Positions 8,932-43,500 of a DNA stretch of 44,199 bases are shown in pieces. Numbering within the stretch: position 1 is the first letter of the stretch; the number at the start of each line of letters is the position of its first letter. Location of the stretch: the IMG/VR virus record IMGVR_UViG_2734482531_000011; one strand, 5' to 3'. The position numbers and the translations under genes were made by a program. Below the pieces are notes generated by a model that ran no database searches, was not told where the DNA came from, and saw only the letters and a program-made list of their open reading frames with translations. Source of the DNA: a virus (lineage: Duplodnaviria > Heunggongvirae > Uroviricota > Caudoviricetes).

Positions 8932-9789
8932 ATGCTGTTTGTGCTTATTCTAAGCCACCGGGCAGCATCATACGGGGCAATTATGGCCGCATTACCATAC
9001 ATGCAACTGTACATAGCTGATTACCTGGCTGACACCATGCATTTGTCAGCAGAGGAGCATGGTGCGTATTTGTTGCTGATGTTCAATTACTGGCAAACAG
9101 GAAAGCCAATACCTAAAAACAGGCTGGCAAAAATTGCCCGTCTGACTAACGAGCGATGGGCTGATGTTGAACCATCCTTGCAGGAGTTTTTTTGCGATAA
9201 CGGCGAGGAATGGGTGCATCTTCGGATTGAGGAAGATCTGGCATCAGTCAGGGAAAAATTAACCAAAAAATCAGCCGCAGGAAAAGCATCTGTTCAGGCC
9301 AGAAGAAGCAGAAAGGAAGCAGATGTTCAAACAAAACAAGAGAGAAATTTAACAGGTGTTCAAACAGATGTTGAAGTGGTGTTTGAACATGATGTCAACA
9401 CAAAGGCAACTAATAAAGATACAGATAAAGATCTAAAAACAGATCCCCCCCTAAATCCCCCCCGGGGGAATCGAGGTGTCAAAAAGTTTGACCCTCTGGA
9501 TATTGCTTTGCCGAACTGGATTTCTGTCTCGCTTTGGCGTGAGTGGGTTGAATTTCGCCAGGCATTGCGAAAACCGATTCGAACGGAGCAGGGCGCTAAC
9601 GGGGCGATACGGGAGCTGGAAAAATTCCGCCAGCAGGGTTTTTCACCTGAGCAGGTGATTCGACACAGCATCGCCAATGAATACCAGGGCTTGTTCGCGC
9701 CGAAAGGTGTTCGACCTGAGACGTTACTCCGACAGGTTAACACCGTCTCGTTACCGGATAGTGCGATCCCGCCAGGCTTCAGGGGGTAA
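8932..9789 (+). CDS. ydaU: YdaU replication-initiation-like protein, 285 aa
   Basis: 285-aa ORF; position upstream of the DnaC-like ydaV as in Rac. Confidence 0.8.
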   Translation: MLFVLILSHRAASYGAIMAALPYMQLYIADYLADTMHLSAEEHGAYLLLMFNYWQTGKPIPKNRLAKIARLTNERWADVEPSLQEFFCDNGEEWVHLRIEEDLASVREKLTKKSAAGKASVQARRSRKEADVQTKQERNLTGVQTDVEVVFEHDVNTKATNKDTDKDLKTDPPLNPPRGNRGVKKFDPLDIALPNWISVSLWREWVEFRQALRKPIRTEQGANGAIRELEKFRQQGFSPEQVIRHSIANEYQGLFAPKGVRPETLLRQVNTVSLPDSAIPPGFRG

Positions 9790-9795
9790 CTGACC

Positions 9796-10236
9796 ATGAA
9801 AAATATTGCGACAGGCGACGTTCTTGAACGTATCCGCAGACTGGCCCCGTCACATGTAACCGCGCCATTCAAGACGGTAGCGGAGTGGCGCGAGTGGCAA
9901 CTTTCCGAAGGCCAGAAACGTTGTGAGGAGATCAACCGTCAGAATCGTCAGTTGCGGGTGGAAAAAATTCTGAATCGCTCTGGCATCCAGCCATTGCACC
10001 GCAAATGCTCGTTTTCGAATTACCAGGTGCAGAACGAAGCGCAGCGATACGCGTTGAGTCAGGCGAAATCCATCGCTGATGAACTGATGACCGGGTGTAC
10101 AAATTTTGCGTTCAGCGGAAAACCTGGTACCGGGAAGAACCACTTAGCGGCAGCTATCGGGAATCGCCTGCTGAAAGACGGTCAGACAGTGATTGTGGTT
10201 ACCGTGGCTGATGTTATGAGTGCCCTGCACGCCAGC
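9796..10236 (+). CDS. ydaV: YdaV DnaC/IstB-like helicase-loader ATPase, 5' portion only; the 3' end lies inside the N run
   Basis: Walker A FSGKPGTGKNHLAAAIG read directly; ORF continues into masked bases so the true end is not visible. Confidence 0.75.
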
Positions 10237-10570
10237 NNNNNNNNNNNNNNNNNNNNNNNNNNNNNNNNNNNNNNNNNNNNNNNNNNNNNNNNNNNNNNNN
10301 NNNNNNNNNNNNNNNNNNNNNNNNNNNNNNNNNNNNNNNNNNNNNNNNNNNNNNNNNNNNNNNNNNNNNNNNNNNNNNNNNNNNNNNNNNNNNNNNNNNN
10401 NNNNNNNNNNNNNNNNNNNNNNNNNNNNNNNNNNNNNNNNNNNNNNNNNNNNNNNNNNNNNNNNNNNNNNNNNNNNNNNNNNNNNNNNNNNNNNNNNNNN
10501 NNNNNNNNNNNNNNNNNNNNNNNNNNNNNNNNNNNNNNNNNNNNNNNNNNNNNNNNNNNNNNNNNNNNNN
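10237..10570. other. Run of 334 N (masked or unresolved sequence)
   Basis: Directly seen. Confidence 0.99.
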
Positions 10571-10594
10571 AATTTTTACCGGGAGGAAATTTTT

Positions 10595-11356
10595 ATGGAG
10601 ACTGTTTTTGACGCACTGAAAGCAATGGGAAAAGCCACATCCATAGAACTTGCTGCGCGACTTGATATCAGTCGTGAAGAAGTGCTGAACGAACTATGGG
10701 AACTGAAAAAAGCTGGTTTCGTTGATAAAAGCGCGTACACCTGGCGTGTGGCTGATAACAACGTTCAGCAGGAACAGCCAATGCAGGCAGAACTGCCGGA
10801 AGAAACCACCACGGCAACTGTAGTGAAAATCTCAGAGTGCGATTTAACCGCGACGATTGAACAACGCGGACCACAAACGGCGGATGAACTGGCTACGCTG
10901 TTCGGTACAACATCCCGCAAAGTTGCTTCAACGCTGGCAATGGCAATCAGCAAAGGACGCCTGATTCGCGTAAACCAGAACAGTAAATTTCGTTACTGCA
11001 TGCCGGGCGATAATTTACCAGCAGAGCCGAAAGCTGCATCGGTAGCGGAAACTGATGGTAAAGCCTTTCCTCAGCCAGCCGGTGTTGCGTTACCAGTACA
11101 GGAAGCGGCAACACAGGAAGATATTAAAACAGAAACTGTGGCGGACATTGTGCAGTCGCTGCCATCGTTTACTGAAACGCAAGCGGATGACCTAGTTTTA
11201 CCATCGCTGCATATGGCAAACCGCGAACTGCGTCGGGCGAAAAATCATGTCCAGAAGTGGGAGCGAGTCTGCGCCGCGCTGCGGGAGCTGAACAAGCACC
11301 GGGATATTGTCCGACAGATTGTCGATTCCTCCAGTCGTATTGTGTCGGAAAAGTGA
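10595..11356 (+). CDS. Hypothetical phage protein with N-terminal winged-helix-like segment, 253 aa
   Basis: ATG at 10595 preceded by GGGAGGA RBS; N-terminus [43 protein letters not shown] resembles a wHTH. Confidence 0.6.
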
Positions 11357-11371
11357 TTGCCGGAGGCGCTT

Positions 11372-11788
11372 ATGGCAAAAGTTTTTACACAGGAAGAGCG
11401 TGAAAAAATTAAGGAGCAGGTTGTTGAGTTGGTACGCCAGAGTGGGCGCGAGACGTTAAGGCAACTGGAGGCCAAGACAGGTGCGACAAGATATCTGATG
11501 AGCATTCTTGCCAGAGAGTTGGTTGCCAGTGGCGATGTATACAACTCTGGCTATGGGTTATTCCCGTCTGAACAGGCTCGTAAGGATTGGAAAAACGCCC
11601 GCAAAAAACTATCCAGGGCAAAGGTGAAAAAAACGGTTGTGGTTGATCCTGACCTTATCTGGTCATTACCAGACGGAGAAATACGCCGCTATGACAGGCG
11701 TCAGAACATAATCTGTCGCGAGTGCCGGAAGAGTGAAGTTATGAAACGTGTACTGGCATTTTATCAAGGAAATCTTCGGTATTTATAG
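11372..11788 (+). CDS. Hypothetical phage protein, 138 aa
   Basis: ATG at 11372 with GGAGG RBS; ORF track start at 11357 is a TTG extension. Confidence 0.55.
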   Translation: MAKVFTQEEREKIKEQVVELVRQSGRETLRQLEAKTGATRYLMSILARELVASGDVYNSGYGLFPSEQARKDWKNARKKLSRAKVKKTVVVDPDLIWSLPDGEIRRYDRRQNIICRECRKSEVMKRVLAFYQGNLRYL

Positions 11789-11923
11789 ACGTTACTAGAT
11801 CAAAGAGCATTAGTTCATATGTAAATTGACATTTTTCTGGCACAGGGGAGAGCTAGCGTGGTTGTCCGCTTTGTGCCAATAGCGGACATTGCTGGCTCAT
11901 GGTATGTTAGTTTAAGGAGGCAG

Positions 11924-11953
11924 GTTATGCCCTGTATTTCGCTGTGGTATAAT
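11924..11953 (+). promoter_or_regulatory. Candidate sigma70 promoter with extended -10 (TGgTATAAT at 11945-11953), weak -35
   Basis: Perfect TGnTATAAT; followed by AGGGAG RBS (11972-11977) and GTG at 11987. Confidence 0.4.
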
Positions 11954-11986
11954 AGTTGCGCAATTGATACAAGGGAGCGTTACATC

Positions 11987-12949
11987 GTGAAAATTGTTTT
12001 CGAGGTTAATGGAAAGAAAGTTCCACTAAAATCTTTAAAATACATAAGCAAAAAAGATCAACTCGAAGTAATGAAAAACTGGTTCTTTGAAAACTTTGAA
12101 GATCCGGCAAATGCTTGTCCGTATGAAAGTAGAGAAGGTGGCTATGCTTACATATATGGCGGGCCGTATGATGCGAGCGAAGAACTACAATCCATCTTCG
12201 GTCAATATGTTAAATCTGAGTATATTGAGGAATTAGTAGATGAATTACAAACACAATGTTTTGACTGGTCTGGAAACTCAAATAATATAGATGATTGGTA
12301 CGATGATGATATCTACGACGCTGTAACGTCTTCCGGTAATCCGTATTTAAAATTCATTGATAATATCGATAAAATAAAAAAACTTGCAAAAGATAAAACT
12401 GAACAACAGCAAAAAAACCACTTGCTTAGTTTGCTCTACACGAATGTTATTACAGCTTTGGAAACGCTTTATGTTGAGCTATTCATTAATTCTATAGAGA
12501 AAGATGATGTCTACATAGCCAATTGTATAGAAAAAGGTAAGACTGAATTTAAAGTAAGCAAAGATATTGCTGCGTTGCCTTTCAAGGGTGAACCCATCGA
12601 GAAAATTAGGGGAGAGCTAATCAGGTCAATCAAGGAACACTTGATCAGTGCAAGCTGGCATAGCACTAAAAAGGTAATCGACCGCTATGAAGCTACATTC
12701 GATATAAAAGTACAAAAAGACTGTCCGATAGAAGCTATTGAATTGGCAACCCTCAATCGAAATCACTTAGTGCATCGTGGTGGAAAGGATAAAGAAGGGA
12801 ACCTCGTAGTGATTACAGACCAGGATCTTGAAACGCTGATTGAAAATGCATCGAACCTGGCAATTATGCTCTACAACAGTTTAAATGTAGCAACGAATAA
12901 AACCACCATTTTGCAACCAGATGACAAACCGTTCATTCATGAATTTTAA
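11987..12949 (+). CDS. Cargo protein A, unknown function, about 320 aa; R-x4-H (RNHLVH) motif near C-terminus (possible HEPN-like); start could also be upstream (ORF open from 11858)
   Basis: Long ORF in an AT-rich segment; own promoter and RBS; 15-nt gap to next gene. Confidence 0.7.
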   Translation: MKIVFEVNGKKVPLKSLKYISKKDQLEVMKNWFFENFEDPANACPYESREGGYAYIYGGPYDASEELQSIFGQYVKSEYIEELVDELQTQCFDWSGNSNNIDDWYDDDIYDAVTSSGNPYLKFIDNIDKIKKLAKDKTEQQQKNHLLSLLYTNVITALETLYVELFINSIEKDDVYIANCIEKGKTEFKVSKDIAALPFKGEPIEKIRGELIRSIKEHLISASWHSTKKVIDRYEATFDIKVQKDCPIEAIELATLNRNHLVHRGGKDKEGNLVVITDQDLETLIENASNLAIMLYNSLNVATNKTTILQPDDKPFIHEF

Positions 12950-12964
12950 TAGCGCAGGTCATAC

Positions 12965-13966
12965 ATGGATATTCGCACACGAAAGACAAAATTTTTAGAG
13001 TCGTTAGATTCAACTGAAGTGATACGCAAAGCAGTAAGTCTCGCTATAGATTGCATTATTGATAATCATAATAGTAATGAAGATACCCCCTTAGTTATTA
13101 CCAGCTATGATGATCTCTGTAGAATCCAGGTGCTAAATTATGTACAGGAGTTTTGCGAAGCTGCATTCCCTGATATGGATGAATATTACTTTAGTCCTAA
13201 CATACTTCGCATCAACGGCAAGACTAGTGAAGAAGCTTGTATTAACTTAATTAAACTCTTAAGAAGTACAAAAGGCATGCTATTCTGGTCCGATGCCCCA
13301 TCGTGGTTCGCTAGCCTCCCCGACGGATTATTCCATGTTGTTAACATTGATCAAAAAATCGTTACTCGCGGCCTTAATAAGAAAAACTCTAAGCCGACAA
13401 TAATCAATAAAGATTACAGTGTAGATACACTACTATCAGAGCTATTTTTGAATGGCGCACACATGGAGCAACCCAACGTACACAACGTTTCTGAGGGAAA
13501 CATGAAGTTCTATGATGAATGCCATGCTGGATTAATCAGACCAATACCCGCTCCAATAGGCGCGTCATACGATGAAGAGATCACAATTAATTCTCCAGAT
13601 TGGCAAAAGCTCGCGTGTGTAGCTTTACGCCGCTATCAGTCGAAGGAATGTCATGACGGAATGCAATGGGATACAACCGATCATGGTTGGACTGATGTAA
13701 TCGCGTATCCATTCGTCGAAGAAATACAATCAATGGATAATAGTGGTTATCGACAATGTTTAGTTGGGCTGGTCACAATAAACAATTCAAATGCAAATTC
13801 TCCGTACCTATCTACCGTTTGGATACATCCATTTTATCGCAGGAGAGGGTTATTAAGTAAGTTATGGCCAAAATTACAAGAGTTATATGGAAGTAACTTC
13901 GAAATTGAGCGACCTAATGAAAATATGAAAGCATTTCTGAAAAGTGCGAAACACGCAGATTACTAA
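12965..13966 (+). CDS. Cargo protein B, unknown function, 333 aa; C-terminal segment VWIHPFYRRRGLLSKLW weakly resembles GNAT motif A
   Basis: Long ORF in AT-rich segment, co-oriented and tightly spaced with protein A. Confidence 0.75.
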   Translation: MDIRTRKTKFLESLDSTEVIRKAVSLAIDCIIDNHNSNEDTPLVITSYDDLCRIQVLNYVQEFCEAAFPDMDEYYFSPNILRINGKTSEEACINLIKLLRSTKGMLFWSDAPSWFASLPDGLFHVVNIDQKIVTRGLNKKNSKPTIINKDYSVDTLLSELFLNGAHMEQPNVHNVSEGNMKFYDECHAGLIRPIPAPIGASYDEEITINSPDWQKLACVALRRYQSKECHDGMQWDTTDHGWTDVIAYPFVEEIQSMDNSGYRQCLVGLVTINNSNANSPYLSTVWIHPFYRRRGLLSKLWPKLQELYGSNFEIERPNENMKAFLKSAKHADY

Positions 13967-14143
13967 TTTATGAATCAGTCTGTGGAGTTAGGGTTGGTGT
14001 GAACAAGTAGGGTAAGAGCCTCAACGTGATGCTATGCCGACCTGCTCCCTGAGAATTCACACAGAAGGCTGCTAGCAATGTCTGCAGATCGCTCAAAGCG
14101 GACTAAAATGTTGGCTTGTTTCTGACTTAGAGCATTTAAGGAA

Positions 14144-14368
14144 GTGCTGGTGGTGACTGGTTGTTGTGTTCCATTTCTACAGAATAAAATCACAGAAACT
14201 ATACCCAATAGTTGTATTGAATCACTGACGAGACAGCCTCATATTTATCAGGACTGGTGTGCGTCTAATACAGGGGGTTGTCGTGCTGGTTCTCAAATGT
14301 GCGCTGGCTATTGCGGCTGTAATGGCAATTTATTGTCTTGCTGTTGTTCTTATGGAGCGGCTTTCTGA
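14144..14368 (+). CDS. Candidate small Cys-rich protein, 74 aa, GTG start; speculative
   Basis: ORF with 12 Cys, C-terminal CRAGSQMCAGYCGCNGNLLSCCCSYGAAF; no convincing RBS spacing. Confidence 0.25.
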   Translation: MLVVTGCCVPFLQNKITETIPNSCIESLTRQPHIYQDWCASNTGGCRAGSQMCAGYCGCNGNLLSCCCSYGAAF

Positions 14369-14586
14369 TTGATTACATACTGGCTAGAAAAAAGGTGTTA
14401 CCTTGGTTTATCTTTGTCCGGCAAGGTGCGCTCATTAATCTTAAGTAAATTTATTGCTCAAGTATTCAGATTACTTCTTATGGTTGAAGTCTCCTGTCAA
14501 TGTAGAACCAATATATTTACAAAAATGAGACCCGTCGGGGATAGCCCTGCCGGGTCTGACTGTTAAAGCATTTTTAATATGATCAT

Positions 14587-14925
14587 CTATTTTTTGGTGC
14601 TATAGACTTTTTCGCCCGAAAAGTCTGGAGCGACCCAAAAGTTAATATTAAACTGAGCATCATCGCTTAGTTCAACACGGTGCCAGTATTGTGGTGGGCT
14701 TGTTGCAAAAGCGCCAGCATTAATGACTACTTTTATCTCCGGTTCAGTAGCATTCTCATCAGTAAAACCATAATATGTTACAGTGCCTTCCATTACGCAC
14801 AACTGCCCAAAAACACCTGCTGCTGTATTATGATGTGTTAATAACGCTGAAGGTACGTTCTCTTTTGTGAAGAACGGAGTTGAGCGTTTGATTACCCAAT
14901 CTTTAGGAATTCTCTTGTGTGTCAT
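14587..14925 (-). CDS. YeaR/DUF1971-like cupin-type protein (TehB-associated domain family), 112 aa
   Basis: Pattern RSTPFF...PA...GV...L.VM.G.V.Y.GF.DE...EP......AG.FA..PP..WH...L.DD..FNI.FWVAP matches my recall of E. coli YeaR; strong GGAGGAGG RBS before ATG 14925. Confidence 0.7.
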   Translation of the reverse strand: MTHKRIPKDWVIKRSTPFFTKENVPSALLTHHNTAAGVFGQLCVMEGTVTYYGFTDENATEPEIKVVINAGAFATSPPQYWHRVELSDDAQFNINFWVAPDFSGEKVYSTKK

Positions 14926-15738
14926 AACCACCTCCTCCAAAACATGCATTAAAAATGCATCTTTTGGAGGGTTATGTCAAGCTGTTATGAAACACATAAT
15001 TGATATGTTGATTAGAGGAGAAGATAGAATAAATATGGTTGTTTTTCGTATAACTATTTGTTTTACTTTTAGTTTATGCATTCTGTGTGTTAGGAATAAG
15101 TTATTAAAGTTTAATCAAAAAATCTCGATGTAGTCCACATAGATTACTGTTACTGAACCTTATTGTGTGTATTAGTTGTGTTCTGAAATTTCAGCTTAAT
15201 TATTTATGATGTATTTTTTAACGATAAATATTTTCCCAGGATACCTTTACTGTGTATATAAATAAATTATATACGCATAAATAATGTAAAGGCGTCCTTT
15301 TAGATATATCTTATCAAATGTTAATGACTTGAGTGGGAAATATGATTCCAGCAACTTATCATGTGGCTACTTTATAAAAATAATGCCCATATAAAACAAC
15401 AAGCGAAAAGGATTACGGATAAAAAAGGAGCGAGATGTGCGAACTTGTTATTTTCCATGTTTAACCACCTTAAATAATTGATGATGACGGGATGATTGCA
15501 TCTGTAATGCTTTTATTGAAATGTTATGATAAAAAAGAACTTTTGCATAACATTAAAATGTAATTTATCTAATCGTTTTTAATAATAAGTGTCGTATTTC
15601 TATCCTTGTACCAGCTATTTGATATGTAGTGTTTGTTCATGCTATGTGGGGCTTTACACCATAGCCAGTTTATTTATACTTTATTCGTCAGCCTGAACAA
15701 CTGGCATCTGCTGCGCTGCGCCATCGAGAGATTGAGAA

Positions 15739-16338
15739 ATGGCGCATATACAACTGGTCAAACAAACCTCTTCTGGTTTACTTCTCCCGGCGACGCCGGA
15801 GAGTTGCGATTTTCTGCATCAAATCAAAATAGGTGAGTGGATACACGCAGACTTTAAGCGTGTGCGTAACTACGCATTCCACAAGCGTTTTTTCAAACTC
15901 CTGCAACTGGGATTCGATTACTGGACTCCGGTCGGTGGGGCGATCACGCCTCGCGAACGAGAACTGCTGTCTGGTTTCGTTGATTACCTGTGCGAATCAG
16001 TTGGTCGGGAACACACGCCAGCCCTGAGTGATGCCGCAGAGCAATACCTTAACACCGTTGCGACTCGTAGAACCCGGGATACGGCGTTGCTAAAGTCGTT
16101 TGAGGCTTTCCGCGAGTGGGTAACCATTCAGGCCGGATTTTACACCGAGCATATTTATCCGGACGGTAGCCGTGGGCGTCGGGCAAAATCCATCGCTTTT
16201 GCGAATATGGACGAAGTCGAGTTTCAGCAGGTTTATAAATCTGTACTGAATGTGCTGTGGAACTGGATTCTGTTCCGTAAATTCTCCTCTCAGGAGGAAG
16301 TTGAAAATGTGGCCGCACAACTACTGGAGTTTGCGTAA
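15739..16338 (+). CDS. Phage protein of unknown function (DUF1367-like by recollection), 199 aa
   Basis: ORF in nin-like position upstream of the YbcO-like gene; stop overlaps next start (TAATG). Confidence 0.6.
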   Translation: MAHIQLVKQTSSGLLLPATPESCDFLHQIKIGEWIHADFKRVRNYAFHKRFFKLLQLGFDYWTPVGGAITPRERELLSGFVDYLCESVGREHTPALSDAAEQYLNTVATRRTRDTALLKSFEAFREWVTIQAGFYTEHIYPDGSRGRRAKSIAFANMDEVEFQQVYKSVLNVLWNWILFRKFSSQEEVENVAAQLLEFA

Positions 16339-17620: not shown

Positions 17621-18211
17621 GGGCTGGTTTATTGTATGCCAAATGATTATTAAAAAGGTTGTGTTAATAACAAGATCCGAAATAATATGCCTGCATATTT
17701 TTATCTTGCTTATATTCTGCATATTGTGCATAGCAGGCTCATCCCTGCAATCAAAACTGTATGATGAGTATTTTTTGTTTTCCTTTTTTCCAGTCATCTG
17801 ATGATGACCTGCTTCTTTTTAATCCGGATCGACATCAGTTTTTTAAGATAATTCCTGCGAGTTATATGCATAAATGCCACAAACTCCGCATTTTATGTGG
17901 TTGGGAGTTGCCGGGCGCGCAGTGAGTTTGCTAAGAAAACTCCTGCATGGTGAATCCCCCTGTGCGGTGGGGTGATACCATTAACCTTTTCTGTCGCCGA
18001 CAGGTATCACGAACATTTTGTTCACCGGGAGGCACCCGGCACCATGCACTTCAATAGATTCTCTCCACATTATGGATATTCTTTCAGAATATCCCACGCA
18101 GACTTTGTGTAAATGTTAACAAATGTGCGTTTTATTTGATCTGATTCGCTGTTTGAGCGTCCAAAACAACGGTATATATAATCCTTTACTATATGACATA
18201 TGTGAGGAAAA

Positions 18212-19653: not shown

Positions 19654-20150
19654 TGCCTCCATCATTACGAAAAGTCGTTGCTGCTGCTATTGGTGGCGGA
19701 GCAATTGCTATAGCATCAGTGTTAATCACTGGCCCAAGTGGTAACGATGGTCTGGAAGGTGTCAGCTACATACCATACAAAGATATTGTTGGTGTATGGA
19801 CTGTATGTCACGGGCATACAGGAAAAGACATCANNNNNNNNNNNNNNNNNNNNNNNNNNNNNNNNNNNNNNNNNNNNNNNNNNNNNNNNNNNNNNNNNNN
19901 NNNNNNNNNNNNNNNNNNNNNNNNNNNNNNNNNNNNNNNNNNNNNNNNNNNNNNNNNNNNNNNNNNNNNNNNNNNNNNNNNNNNNNNNNNNNNNNNNNNN
20001 NNNNNNNNNNNNNNNNNNNNNNNNNNNNNNNNNNNNNNNNNNNNNNNNNNNNNNNNNNNNNNNNNNNNNNNNNNNNNNNNNNNGCAATGGAAAGGTCTCA
20101 TGACTCGTCGTGAGATTGAGCGTGAAATCTGTTTGTGGGGTCAGCAATGA
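19653..20150 (+). CDS. SAR (signal-anchor-release) endolysin, R21-like lysozyme, 165 aa; central part masked by N
   Basis: N-terminus [36 protein letters not shown] (SAR domain) and C-terminus [21 protein letters not shown]; frame is maintained across the N run. Confidence 0.85.
19834..20083. other. Run of 250 N (masked or unresolved sequence) inside the endolysin gene
   Basis: Directly seen. Confidence 0.99.
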
Positions 20151-40596: not shown

Positions 40597-43500
40597 ATGG
40601 GTAAAGGCAGCAGTAAGGGGCATACCCCGCGCGAAGCGAAGGACAACCTGAAGTCCACGCAGCTGCTGAGTGTGATCGATGCCATCAGTGAAGGGCCGGT
40701 TGAAGGTCCGGTGGATGGATTAAAAAGCGTGCTGCTGAACAGTACGCCGGTGCTGGACAATGAGGGGAATACCAACATCTCCGGCGTCACGGTGGTGTTC
40801 CGGGCAGGTGAGCAGGAGCAGTCACCGCCGGAGGGGTTTGAATCCTCCGGCTCCGAGACGGTGCTGGGTACGGAAGTGAAATATGACACGCCGATCACCC
40901 GGACCATCACGTCGGCAAACATCGACCGTCTGCGCTTTACCTTCGGTGTACAGGCACTGGTGGAAACCACCTCAAAGGGAGACAGGAATCCGTCGGAAGT
41001 CCGCCTGCTGGTTCAGATACAGCGTAACGGTGGCTGGGTGACGGAAAAAGACATCACCATTAAGGGCAAAACCACCTCGCAGTATCTGGTCTCGGTGGTG
41101 GTGGATAACNNNNNNNNNNNNNNNNNNNNNNNNNNNNNNNNNNNNNNNNNNNNNNNNNNNNNNNNNNNNNNNNNNNNNNNNNNNNNNNNNNNNNNNNNNN
41201 NNNNNNNNNNNNNNNNNNNNNNNNNNNNNNNNNNNNNNNNNNNNNNNNNNNNNNNNNNNNNNNNNNNNNNNNNNNNNNNNNNNNNNNNNNNNNNNNNNNN
41301 NNNNNNNNNNNNNNNNNNNNNNNNNNNNNNNNNNNNNNNNNNNNNNNNNNNNNNNNNNNATACAGCGGTATCTGGGACGGAACGTTAAAACCAGCATACA
41401 GCAACAACATGGCCTGGTGTCTGTGGGATATGCTGACCCACCCGCGCTACGGCATGGGGAAACGTCTTGGTGCGGCGGATGTGGACAAATGGGCGCTGTA
41501 TGTCATCGGCCAGTACTGCGACCAGTCAGTGCCGGACGGCTTTGGCGGCACGGAGCCGCGCATCACCTGTAATGCGTACCTGACCACACAGCGCAAGGCG
41601 TGGGATGTGCTCAGTGATTTCTGCTCGGCGATGCGCTGTATGCCGGTATGGAACGGGCAGACGCTGACGTTCGTGCAGGACCGACCGTCGGATAAGGTGT
41701 GGACCTATAACCGCAGTAATGTGGTGATGCCGGATGATGGCGCGCCGTTCCGCTACAGCTTCAGCGCCCTGAAAGACCGCCATAATGCCGTTGAGGTGAA
41801 CTGGATTGACCCGGATAACGGCTGGGAGACGGCGACAGAGCTTGTGGAGGATACGCAGGCCATTGCCCGTTACGGTCGTAACGTCACGAAGATGGATGCT
41901 TTTGGCTGTACCAGCCGGGGGCAGGCACACCGCGCCGGGCTGTGGCTGATTAAAACAGAACTGCTGGAAACGCAGACCGTGGACTTCAGCGTGGGCGCAG
42001 AAGGGCTTCGCCATGTGCCGGGCGATGTCATTGAAATCTGTGATGATGACTATGCGGGTATCAGCATCGGCGGGCGCGTGCTGGCGGTAAACAGCCAGAC
42101 CCGGACGCTGACGCTCGACCGTGAAATCACGCTGCCATCCTCCGGTACCATGCTGATAAGCCTGGTTGACGGAAGTGGCAATCCGGTCAGCGTGGAGGTT
42201 CAGTCCGTCACCGACGGCGTGAAGGTGAAAGTGAGCCGTGTTCCTGACGGCGTTGCTGAATACAGCGTGTGGGGGCTGAAGCTGCCGACGTTGCGCCAGC
42301 GCCTGTTCCGCTGTGTGAGTATCCGTGAGAACGATGACGGCACGTATGCCATCACTGCCGTGCAGCATGTACCGGAAAAAGAAGCCATCGTGGATAACGG
42401 GGCGCACTTTGACGGCGACCAGAGCGGCACGGTGAATGGTGTCACGCCGCCAGCGGTGCAGCACCTGACTGCCGAAGTCACCGCAGACAGCGGGGAATAT
42501 CAGGTGCTGGCGCGCTGGGACACGCCGAAGGTGGTGAAGGGGGTGAGCTTTATGCTTCGCCTGACCGTGGCAGCGGATGACGGCAGTGAGCGGCTGGTCA
42601 GCACGGCCCGGACGACGGAAACCACATACCGCTTCACGCAACTGGCGCTGGGACGGTACACGCTGACAGTCCGGGCGGTAAATGCCTGGGGACAGCAGGG
42701 CGATCCGGCGTCGGTATCGTTCAGGATTGCCGCACCGGTAGCACCGTCGCGGATTGAGCTGACGCCGGGCTATTTTCAGATAACTGCCACGCCGCATCTT
42801 GCGGTTTATGATCCGACGGTACAGTTTGAGTTCTGGTTCTCGGAAACGCGGATTACCGATATCAGGCAGGTTGAAACCACAGCCCGCTACCTTGGCGCGG
42901 GGCTGTACTGGATAGCCGCCAGTATCAATATCAAACCGGGCCATGATTATTACTTTTATATCCGCAGTGTGAACACCGTTGGCAAATCGGCATTCGTGGA
43001 GGCCGTCGGTCGGGCGAGCGATGATGCGGAAGGTTACCTGGATTTTTTCAAAGGCAAGATAACCGAATCCCATCTCGGTAAAGAGCTGCTGGAAAAAGTT
43101 GATCTGACGGAGGATAACGCCAGCAGACTGGATGAGTTTTCGAAAGAGTGGAAGGACGCTAACGATAAATGGAATGCGATGTGGGGCGTCAAAATTGAGC
43201 AGACCAAAGACGGCAAACATTATGTCGCGGGTATTGGCCTCAGCATGGAGGACACGGAGGAAGGCAAGCTGAGCCAGTTTCTGGTTGCCGCCAATCGTAT
43301 CGCGTTTATTGACCCGGCAAACGGGAATGAAACGCCGATGTTTGTGGCGCAGGGCAACCAGATATTCATGAACGACGTGTTCCTGAAGCGCCTGACAGCC
43401 CCCGCCATTACCAGCGGTGGCAGTCCTCCGGTATTTTCCCTGACATCAGACGGAAAGCTGACCGCTAAAAATGCGGATATCAGTGGTAGTGTGAATGCGA

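Follow-up and report, generated by a model that had tools for sequence, protein, structure and literature searches.

The window analysed here, a 44,199-nucleotide stretch of DNA from a tailed phage (IMG/VR record IMGVR_UViG_2734482531_000011), is a Rac-like prophage integrated at ttcA, with long stretches identical to Escherichia coli FORC_081. At positions 11924–13966 it carries an operon of two genes, here called A and B. The best explanation overall, held with high confidence, is that this operon is the anti-phage defence system DS-33, carried on a 2.2-kb mobile cassette that follows the DUF977 gene of a Rac-like lambdoid prophage. DS-33 was published as a validated system in 2026, so the window brings no new system. 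A first-pass annotation, made from the raw letters, had put the operon forward as an undescribed system with a possible role in defence. It had found a real defence operon and named both protein folds correctly; the claim of novelty does not stand, and the defence role is borne out by the experiments of others on an identical A protein.

Identity with DS-33 and its defence phenotype

DS-33 (working name 'GNAT') comes from the DefensePredictor study of DeWeirdt and the Laub laboratory (Science 2026, Tables S6–S8; PMC13092281). Table S6 lists it as WP_014639476.1 plus WP_000354965.1, with defensive = TRUE and the category 'Predicted novel defense gene', and its locus is NZ_QOWT01000046.1 6922–8901 (PMC13092281). 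Protein A is identical at 320 of 320 residues to the DS-33A sequence printed in Table S8 (WP_014639476.1), and protein B at 332 of 333 residues to DS-33B (WP_000354965.1), the sole difference being a proline at position 289 in the window and a leucine in the tested allele. Gene order and spacing are also shared, with B directly downstream of A across a spacer of 15 nucleotides (nt). The match came only via the supplementary tables: neither accession occurs in the text of the searchable papers, and the main text of the DefensePredictor paper neither discusses DS-33 nor gives a mechanism for it (PMC13092281). A domain-centric operon screen (PMC13069673) mentions neither HEPN nor GNAT. The PADLOC v2 catalogue (2023) gave no meaningful match for A, B or 66 A-family members, and DS-33 is therefore later than that catalogue.

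In the published assays, transcription units with their predicted native promoter regions were placed on a low-copy plasmid in an MG1655 host, and Table S7 reports log10 protection in two replicates, with five phages for the mutants (PMC13092281). Wild-type DS-33 protected by 2–6 log10 against T7 (3.8/2.6), T3 (3.3/2.4), Bas67 (4.0/2.0) and Bas26 (5.0/5.9), and T5 was barely affected (0.8/0.1). Deleting A (Delta-HEPN, which leaves B only) gave −0.5 to 0.5 log10 on all five phages and the substitution R258A gave −0.3 to 0.8 log10 across the same five (PMC13092281). Since both changes abolish protection, A and its HEPN arginine R258 are required for defence. Deleting B (Delta-GNAT) left protection of 4.8/4.3 against T7, 3.3/3.3 against T3, 4.0/3.3 against Bas67, 5.0/4.9 against Bas26 and 1.7/0.5 against T5 (PMC13092281). 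These data, obtained by others with an identical A protein, show that defence needs gene A and that A suffices when B is deleted. B is not needed, and its removal if anything strengthens protection, by a mean of about +0.5 log10 that lies within assay resolution.

Domain structure of protein A

Protein A is a two-domain protein that joins HEPN/RES N-terminal domain 1 (NTD1, PF18870; about residues 1–115, positions 11987–12331, plus strand) to a HEPN domain of the RiboL-PSP-HEPN type (about residues 120–305, 12344–12901, plus strand) with an invariant Rx4H motif. That motif, R258-N-H-L-V-H263-R264 (12758–12778, plus strand), is marked as catalytic by its conservation and by the published R258A phenotype. 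Deep homolog searches yielded 121 clusters for A and 66 for B, and R258, H263 and R264 are invariant in 66 A-family sequences, down to 26% identity. Against PF18870, A itself scores 22.2 bits (E = 1.9e-4), below the gathering threshold of 27.4 bits, which is passed by the A-family members P0112 (29.6), P0116 (28.7), P0115 (28.7) and P0117 (27.7 bits). Against PF18735 (RiboL-PSP-HEPN), A itself has no match at E <= 1, and its homologs P0060, P0101, P0103 and P0112, which are 30–58% identical to A, score 28.5–39.1 bits against a cut-off of 28.4. Because A itself falls below the Pfam cut-offs, its domain assignments rest on homologs together with the predicted structure.

The AlphaFold2 prediction for A has a mean predicted local distance difference test score (pLDDT) of 89.1 and shows the helical bundle of a HEPN fold. 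The closest solved folds are HEPN toxins of type VII toxin–antitoxin systems (8xdj, 5yep and 7ae2). The first-pass annotation had singled out RNHLVH, which corresponds to R258–H263 at 12758–12775, as a HEPN signature, and the invariant Rx4H motif, the Pfam matches of homologs and the fold comparison all uphold that reading. A is accordingly described as a HEPN protein whose Rx4H motif is predicted to form an RNase-type active site. Other collections were uninformative: NCBIfam held nothing for A or B, PHROGs matched only families of 'unknown function', and A- and B-family profiles run against all PDB sequences gave chance matches only.

The N-terminal domain is the most conserved part of the A family, with the motifs WFxxNFEDP and GGPY. 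It also appears in a different setting, at the C-terminus of a PIN_8 nuclease in the metagenomic protein P0116 (407 residues), so the same putative sensor module is wired there to another RNase class. The domain is modular, and is a candidate sensor or regulatory module.

Protein B and the Pro289 allele

Gene B (12965–13966, plus strand; ATG start) encodes a DS-33B-like protein of 333 residues (WP_000354966.1). As judged from its modelled fold, B is a predicted GNAT-fold acyltransferase with a unique N-terminal domain, an accessory protein that is neither the effector nor an obligatory antitoxin. The N-terminal alpha/beta domain (about residues 1–200; 12965–13564, plus strand) is family-specific: it has no Pfam match, and a phmmer search of 1.84 billion representatives returned 21 matches, all of them B-family proteins or fragments. 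The GNAT domain follows (about residues 205–333; 13577–13963, plus strand). On PF00583, B scores 19.9 bits against a gathering threshold of 20.7, which the B homologs P0164 (27.0), P0166 (26.2) and P0141 (22.0 bits) pass. The AlphaFold2 model of B (mean pLDDT 89.9) has the GNAT fold, in agreement with the resemblance that had been noted in its C-terminal stretch, VWIHPFYRRRG. This stretch is residues 285–295 and lies within the part of B that aligns to Pfam GNAT positions 42–91.

The motif A region of B, W286-I-H-P289-F-Y-R292-R-R-G295, occupies 13820–13849 (plus strand), with the codon for P289 at 13829–13831. Motif A (Q/R-x-x-G-x-G/A) reads R292-R-R-G295-L-L in B; R292 is invariant, but family members differ at G295 and B lacks the second G/A. 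W286, H288, P289 and R292 are invariant in 44 B-family sequences, and Pro289 is present in all 50 B copies of the fetched loci. An exact-sequence look-up found the Pro289 allele in at least 1000 contigs and the Leu289 allele in 31. The majority allele, which the window carries, thus differs from the one behind the published conclusion that B is dispensable. Because the tested B has leucine at a family-invariant proline of motif A, the 'GNAT dispensable' result may have been measured with a defective allele. Even with this caveat, the result shows that A can do without B, both in defence and as regards cell viability.

Operon layout, promoter and start codon

Gene A, the HEPN effector DS-33A (WP_014639476.1; 100% identical to the published sequence), spans 11987–12949 on the plus strand, and is separated from B by the 15-nt spacer at 12950–12964. 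The open reading frame list and the sequence bear out the earlier description of two co-oriented frames of 320 and 333 residues lying 15 nt apart. The minimal mobile cassette, delimited by comparison with Serratia grimesii (locus L004), runs from 11864 to 14040 (plus strand) and comprises the promoter region, A, B and a 3′ tail of about 75 nt.

The start of A was placed at GTG 11987, in a frame that is open from 11858, and yields 320 residues. A Shine–Dalgarno sequence, AGGGAG (11972–11977, plus strand), stands 9 nt ahead of it, and both the Shine–Dalgarno sequence and the GTG persist even where A homologs are 75% identical. More generally, every aligned copy, the A-only loci L005 and L006 among them, has AAGGAG or AAGGGAG 7–9 nt ahead of the start. 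With these elements conserved and A homologs 310–320 residues long, GTG 11987 is taken as the right start; PGAP annotates the same one and, in identical loci, gives the protein the accession WP_014639476.1, and the ribosome-binding site and start given by the first-pass annotation are retained. A further in-frame ATG lies at 11927, 20 codons ahead of the GTG, and has a strong AAGGAGG Shine–Dalgarno sequence; the resulting 340-residue form is called in cluster P0001 (769 members). This ATG, with its stronger Shine–Dalgarno sequence, was rejected as the conserved start and is lost in several diverged copies, where it reads ATA.

An extended −10 element, TGGTATAAT, lies at 11945–11953 (plus strand). 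Taken by itself, the pattern is no commoner than chance predicts (2 found, 1.5 expected), nor is TGNTATAAT alone. A sigma-70 consensus scan, whose counts equalled those of shuffled sequence, did not call the element at 11945–11953 because it lacks a −35 hexamer. In an alignment of upstream regions, TGnTAYAAT, an AAGGAG-type Shine–Dalgarno sequence and the GTG start are all kept in cassettes diverged to 84–87% protein identity. The promoter call for A is made because the element is conserved across diverged cassettes, and not from the consensus scan. The element is at the position first proposed.

An 8-bp inverted repeat, TGTCCGCT / AGCGGACA, with a 10-nt loop (11863–11888, strand not assigned) was read from the sequence exactly at the cassette's left boundary and is kept in most diverged cassettes. 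It lacks a T-run behind it and went uncalled in the terminator scan; an operator, an RNA element and a recombination scar are all possible readings. The same terminator consensus scan called nothing after B, with counts equal to those of shuffles. Rfam places no RNA family within the cassette. Elsewhere in the window it identifies the RalA antitoxin small RNA (sRNA), of the RalR/RalA type I toxin–antitoxin system of Rac, and the sRNA STnc100, at 1557–1735 and 17915–18101.

The guanine-plus-cytosine (GC) fraction of 11924–13966 is 0.379, compared with 0.492 in the left flank (9000–11860), 0.421 in the right flank and 0.466 in the whole window, and no more than 1.5% of windows of 2043 nt reach a value this low. 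The operon is therefore poorer in GC than both flanks, as had been suspected by eye, but the AT-rich tract does not end with it and extends rightward past B. A very AT-rich region at about 14950–15740 (GC 0.29 at 15001–15500) lies between a DUF1971 gene (14587–14949, minus strand) and a DUF1367 gene; the identical FORC_081 record annotates no gene there, and Rfam gave no match. Runs masked with N at 10237–10570, 19834–20083 and 41110–41359 lower GC artificially in the composition table, and the masking breaks the DnaC-like and DUF1627 reading frames upstream of the cassette.

A mobile cassette in a variable prophage slot

The cassette sits directly after the DUF977 gene in the window, and it does so again in a Qin-like prophage of E. 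coli S88, where homology spans 11362–14387. In Serratia grimesii, DNA identity is 97% over exactly 11864–14040, and the cassette lies outside a lambdoid prophage, between a RadC/CbeA/DUF4942 island module and McrBC. The full cassette is present at >=99% identity in 205 of 5426 complete E. coli genomes, and DUF977 genes in 3923 of them. The phage GenBank collection held no copy of the cassette and only about 90 nt of its upstream flank.

Six other sampled prophages carry different genes in the same slot: QueH with a type II restriction–modification pair, QueH alone (twice), AIPR, DUF5677, or small hypothetical genes. As its contents differ among prophages, the slot is a variable cargo hotspot, often with defence genes. 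The proposal that this site between the replication and nin/Q modules is a variable cargo slot was thereby confirmed.

Some E. coli prophages carry decayed copies with a deletion of about 3.2 kb (locus L107, 9 contigs; proteins P0147 and P0148; junction equivalent to window positions 10159/13363). The deletion fuses the first 119 residues of the DnaC-like replication protein to B residues 133–333 and removes DUF1627, DUF977, A and the N-terminus of B.

Distribution of A and B

The A family was surveyed in 80 loci fetched from one-genome-per-species contigs with the A alignment. B is present in two of them, both near-identical copies of the cassette; the other 78 have neither B within 10 kb nor a neighbour that recurs. 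These B-less loci come from many phyla, and among them are homologs from Yersinia and Aeromonas that are 75–76% identical to A. Seen from B, 51 loci have a B of at least 73% identity with upstream sequence long enough to judge, and in 47 of them A comes directly before it. The two genes are 15 nt apart in 43 of 48 cassettes and 14–18 nt apart in the others. In all diverged cassettes B is the faster-diverging of the two. No conserved alternative partner was found for A (80 loci) or for distant B homologs (14 loci). From this stand-alone distribution it follows that over most of its range A is a module of one self-contained gene and that the A–B bicistron is a lineage-specific combination; in the loci surveyed, the pairing is confined to an Enterobacterales/Aeromonas cassette.

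A belongs to a large, phylum-spanning family of stand-alone NTD1-HEPN proteins, and could be a model for the way in which one sensor module, shared among proteins, drives different RNases. In other phyla and genera, genes near A-family members include DUF4238-like genes (L017 12745–13731, L049 2579–3538, L050 7996–9225), an ApeA-like HEPN gene (L006 8338–9696) and McrBC (L004 12458–15585); in Yersinia, an A homolog adjoins an ApeA-like gene. Gene neighbourhoods of this kind suggest that the whole NTD1-HEPN family lives in defence islands.

Proposed mechanism and alternative explanations

Under the proposed mechanism, A would be made in the lysogen from its own extended −10 promoter and kept inactive. 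Sensing of infection would fall to its N-terminal domain, a domain that other proteins link to PIN or RES effectors, and would activate a dimeric HEPN RNase site. Activated A would then cut host and/or phage RNA (tRNA or mRNA) and stop phage growth, probably by abortive infection. B, presumed to be co-transcribed from its position 15 nt downstream, might tune or gate A, for example by limiting self-damage or by letting the home prophage replicate; we regard this role as a tentative one, a little short of an even chance. It is unlikely that B with Pro289 is, more specifically, an active acyltransferase that controls A, for instance by acetylating A or its RNA/tRNA substrate. If it were, B could set the activation threshold of A or switch A off when the home prophage goes lytic, and would be an acetylation-based counterpart of HepT/MntA AMPylation control, a tunable brake and not an antitoxin.

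Several points weigh against this account as a whole. A itself lies below the curated Pfam cut-offs for both domains, and the sensor role of its N-terminal domain is drawn from domain shuffling only. As regards B, the tested Leu289 allele may be defective; the Delta-GNAT gain of about +0.5 log10 is within spot-assay resolution and could be an expression effect; and B occurs without A in loci L102, L103 and L124 and in all distant (marine) homologs.

A different view of the pair is that A and B are independent cargo that travel together, A being a complete one-gene HEPN defence and B a separate defence or fitness gene. On that view B could acetylate a phage protein, a small molecule or an aminoacyl-tRNA, and have a target range of its own that five phages did not reveal. 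Both families stand alone in distant lineages with no shared partner. B occurs alone after a P4/PICI-type (phage-inducible chromosomal island) primase (L103) and near AAA_13, a Tse2 toxin or a HerA-like gene, and three copies 86% identical to B have no A. Its deletion does not lower defence, and DefensePredictor gave it a weakly positive log-odds of 1.08 compared with 9.45 for A (PMC13092281). Set against this are the 15-nt spacer kept in most cassettes without a separate promoter for B, the co-inheritance of the pair down to 73–78% B identity, and the failure of B alone to protect against any of the five phages, though with the Leu289 allele. Independent cargo is a credible alternative, about as likely as the tuning role of B and still somewhat doubtful.

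The first-pass annotation had implied a two-partner logic of the toxin–antitoxin or abortive-infection kind, which is not borne out. Cast as a toxin–antitoxin system, A would be a HEPN RNase toxin that B neutralises by acetylation, much as MntA AMPylates HepT, with phage infection relieving the block. The tight bicistron, the type VII toxins as closest solved folds of A and the tendency of Delta-GNAT towards stronger defence would all fit. However, cells of the Delta-GNAT strain survive and served in plaque assays, with defence kept or strengthened and no loss of viability reported; A lacks B in 78 of the 80 species-genome loci, the 75–76% identical homologs among them; and a toxin gene placed first and a partner of 333 residues would both be atypical. 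That A is viable beside a tested B that is possibly inactive makes the argument against a toxin–antitoxin system even stronger. This explanation is already largely refuted, and we give it very little credence.

It is equally improbable, to a degree that makes it hard to entertain, that A and B serve the prophage itself, in RNA processing or superinfection control, and that the plasmid phenotype is an artefact of over-expression. The assays were indeed made on a plasmid in MG1655 and not in a native lysogen, and no native-context deletion of DS-33 is reported. Yet protection is phage-specific and needs the catalytic R258, the cassette also occurs outside prophages, as in the Serratia island beside McrBC, and the A family is widespread in non-phage contexts.

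Comparison with known systems

Protein A and its operon were compared with several characterised systems. Unlike type VII HEPN–MNT (HepT/MntA) systems, the neighbour of A is a dispensable GNAT protein with no match to a nucleotidyltransferase family in Pfam; the obligate pairing of that type is also missing, given the many A loci that lack both B and a recurrent partner and the viability of Delta-GNAT. Nor does the operon resemble GNAT-toxin systems of the TacT/AtaT/KacT type, which combine a small single-domain GNAT with an upstream ribbon-helix-helix (RHH)/DUF1778 antitoxin. The RiboL-PSP-HEPN family is distantly related to AbiD/AbiF (Anantharaman et al. 2013). AbiD/AbiF (Abi_2) resemble A in being single-protein HEPN determinants of phage resistance, but A has a different N-terminal domain and no Pfam Abi_2 match was found.

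PD-T4-2, a two-gene E. coli defence system of a DUF262/ParB-like protein and a HEPN protein, was described by Vassallo et al. (2022). Its component PD-T4-2_B, of the RiboL-PSP-HEPN class, is the closest named remote relative of the HEPN domain of A (HHblits probability 96.1 over 55% of A; Table S8, PMC13092281). The operon differs in that its second protein is a GNAT and not DUF262, and in the NTD1 domain of A. Membership of PD-T4-2 was rejected, the PADLOC models for that system matching neither A nor any of the 66 A-family members.

The closest functional analogue of A is HepS of the Salmonella prophage Gifsy-1 (Nature 2026; PMC13043305). In HepS, a solo HEPN protein that is made constitutively, sensing and execution are combined in one chain; it acts with neither partner nor antitoxin and depends on its Rx4-6H motif (PMC13043305). 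It is a tRNA anticodon nuclease, triggered by the tail tip and directed against siphoviruses, with its motif at R100–H105 (PMC13043305). The position of this motif, compared with R258–H263 in A, indicates that HepS is smaller and of different architecture. No homology between A and HepS was found: the A profile gave no relevant match among all PDB sequences, and Foldseek against PDB gave nothing at E <= 0.001, searches in which the presence of a HepS entry is unconfirmed. A differs from HepS by its added NTD1 domain and by acting on T7/T3-type and Bas phages. Both genes occupy an accessory slot that follows the replication genes in a lambdoid prophage, and the DUF977–hokD slot of Rac/Qin-type prophages is a defence hotspot comparable to the HepS slot in Gifsy-1.

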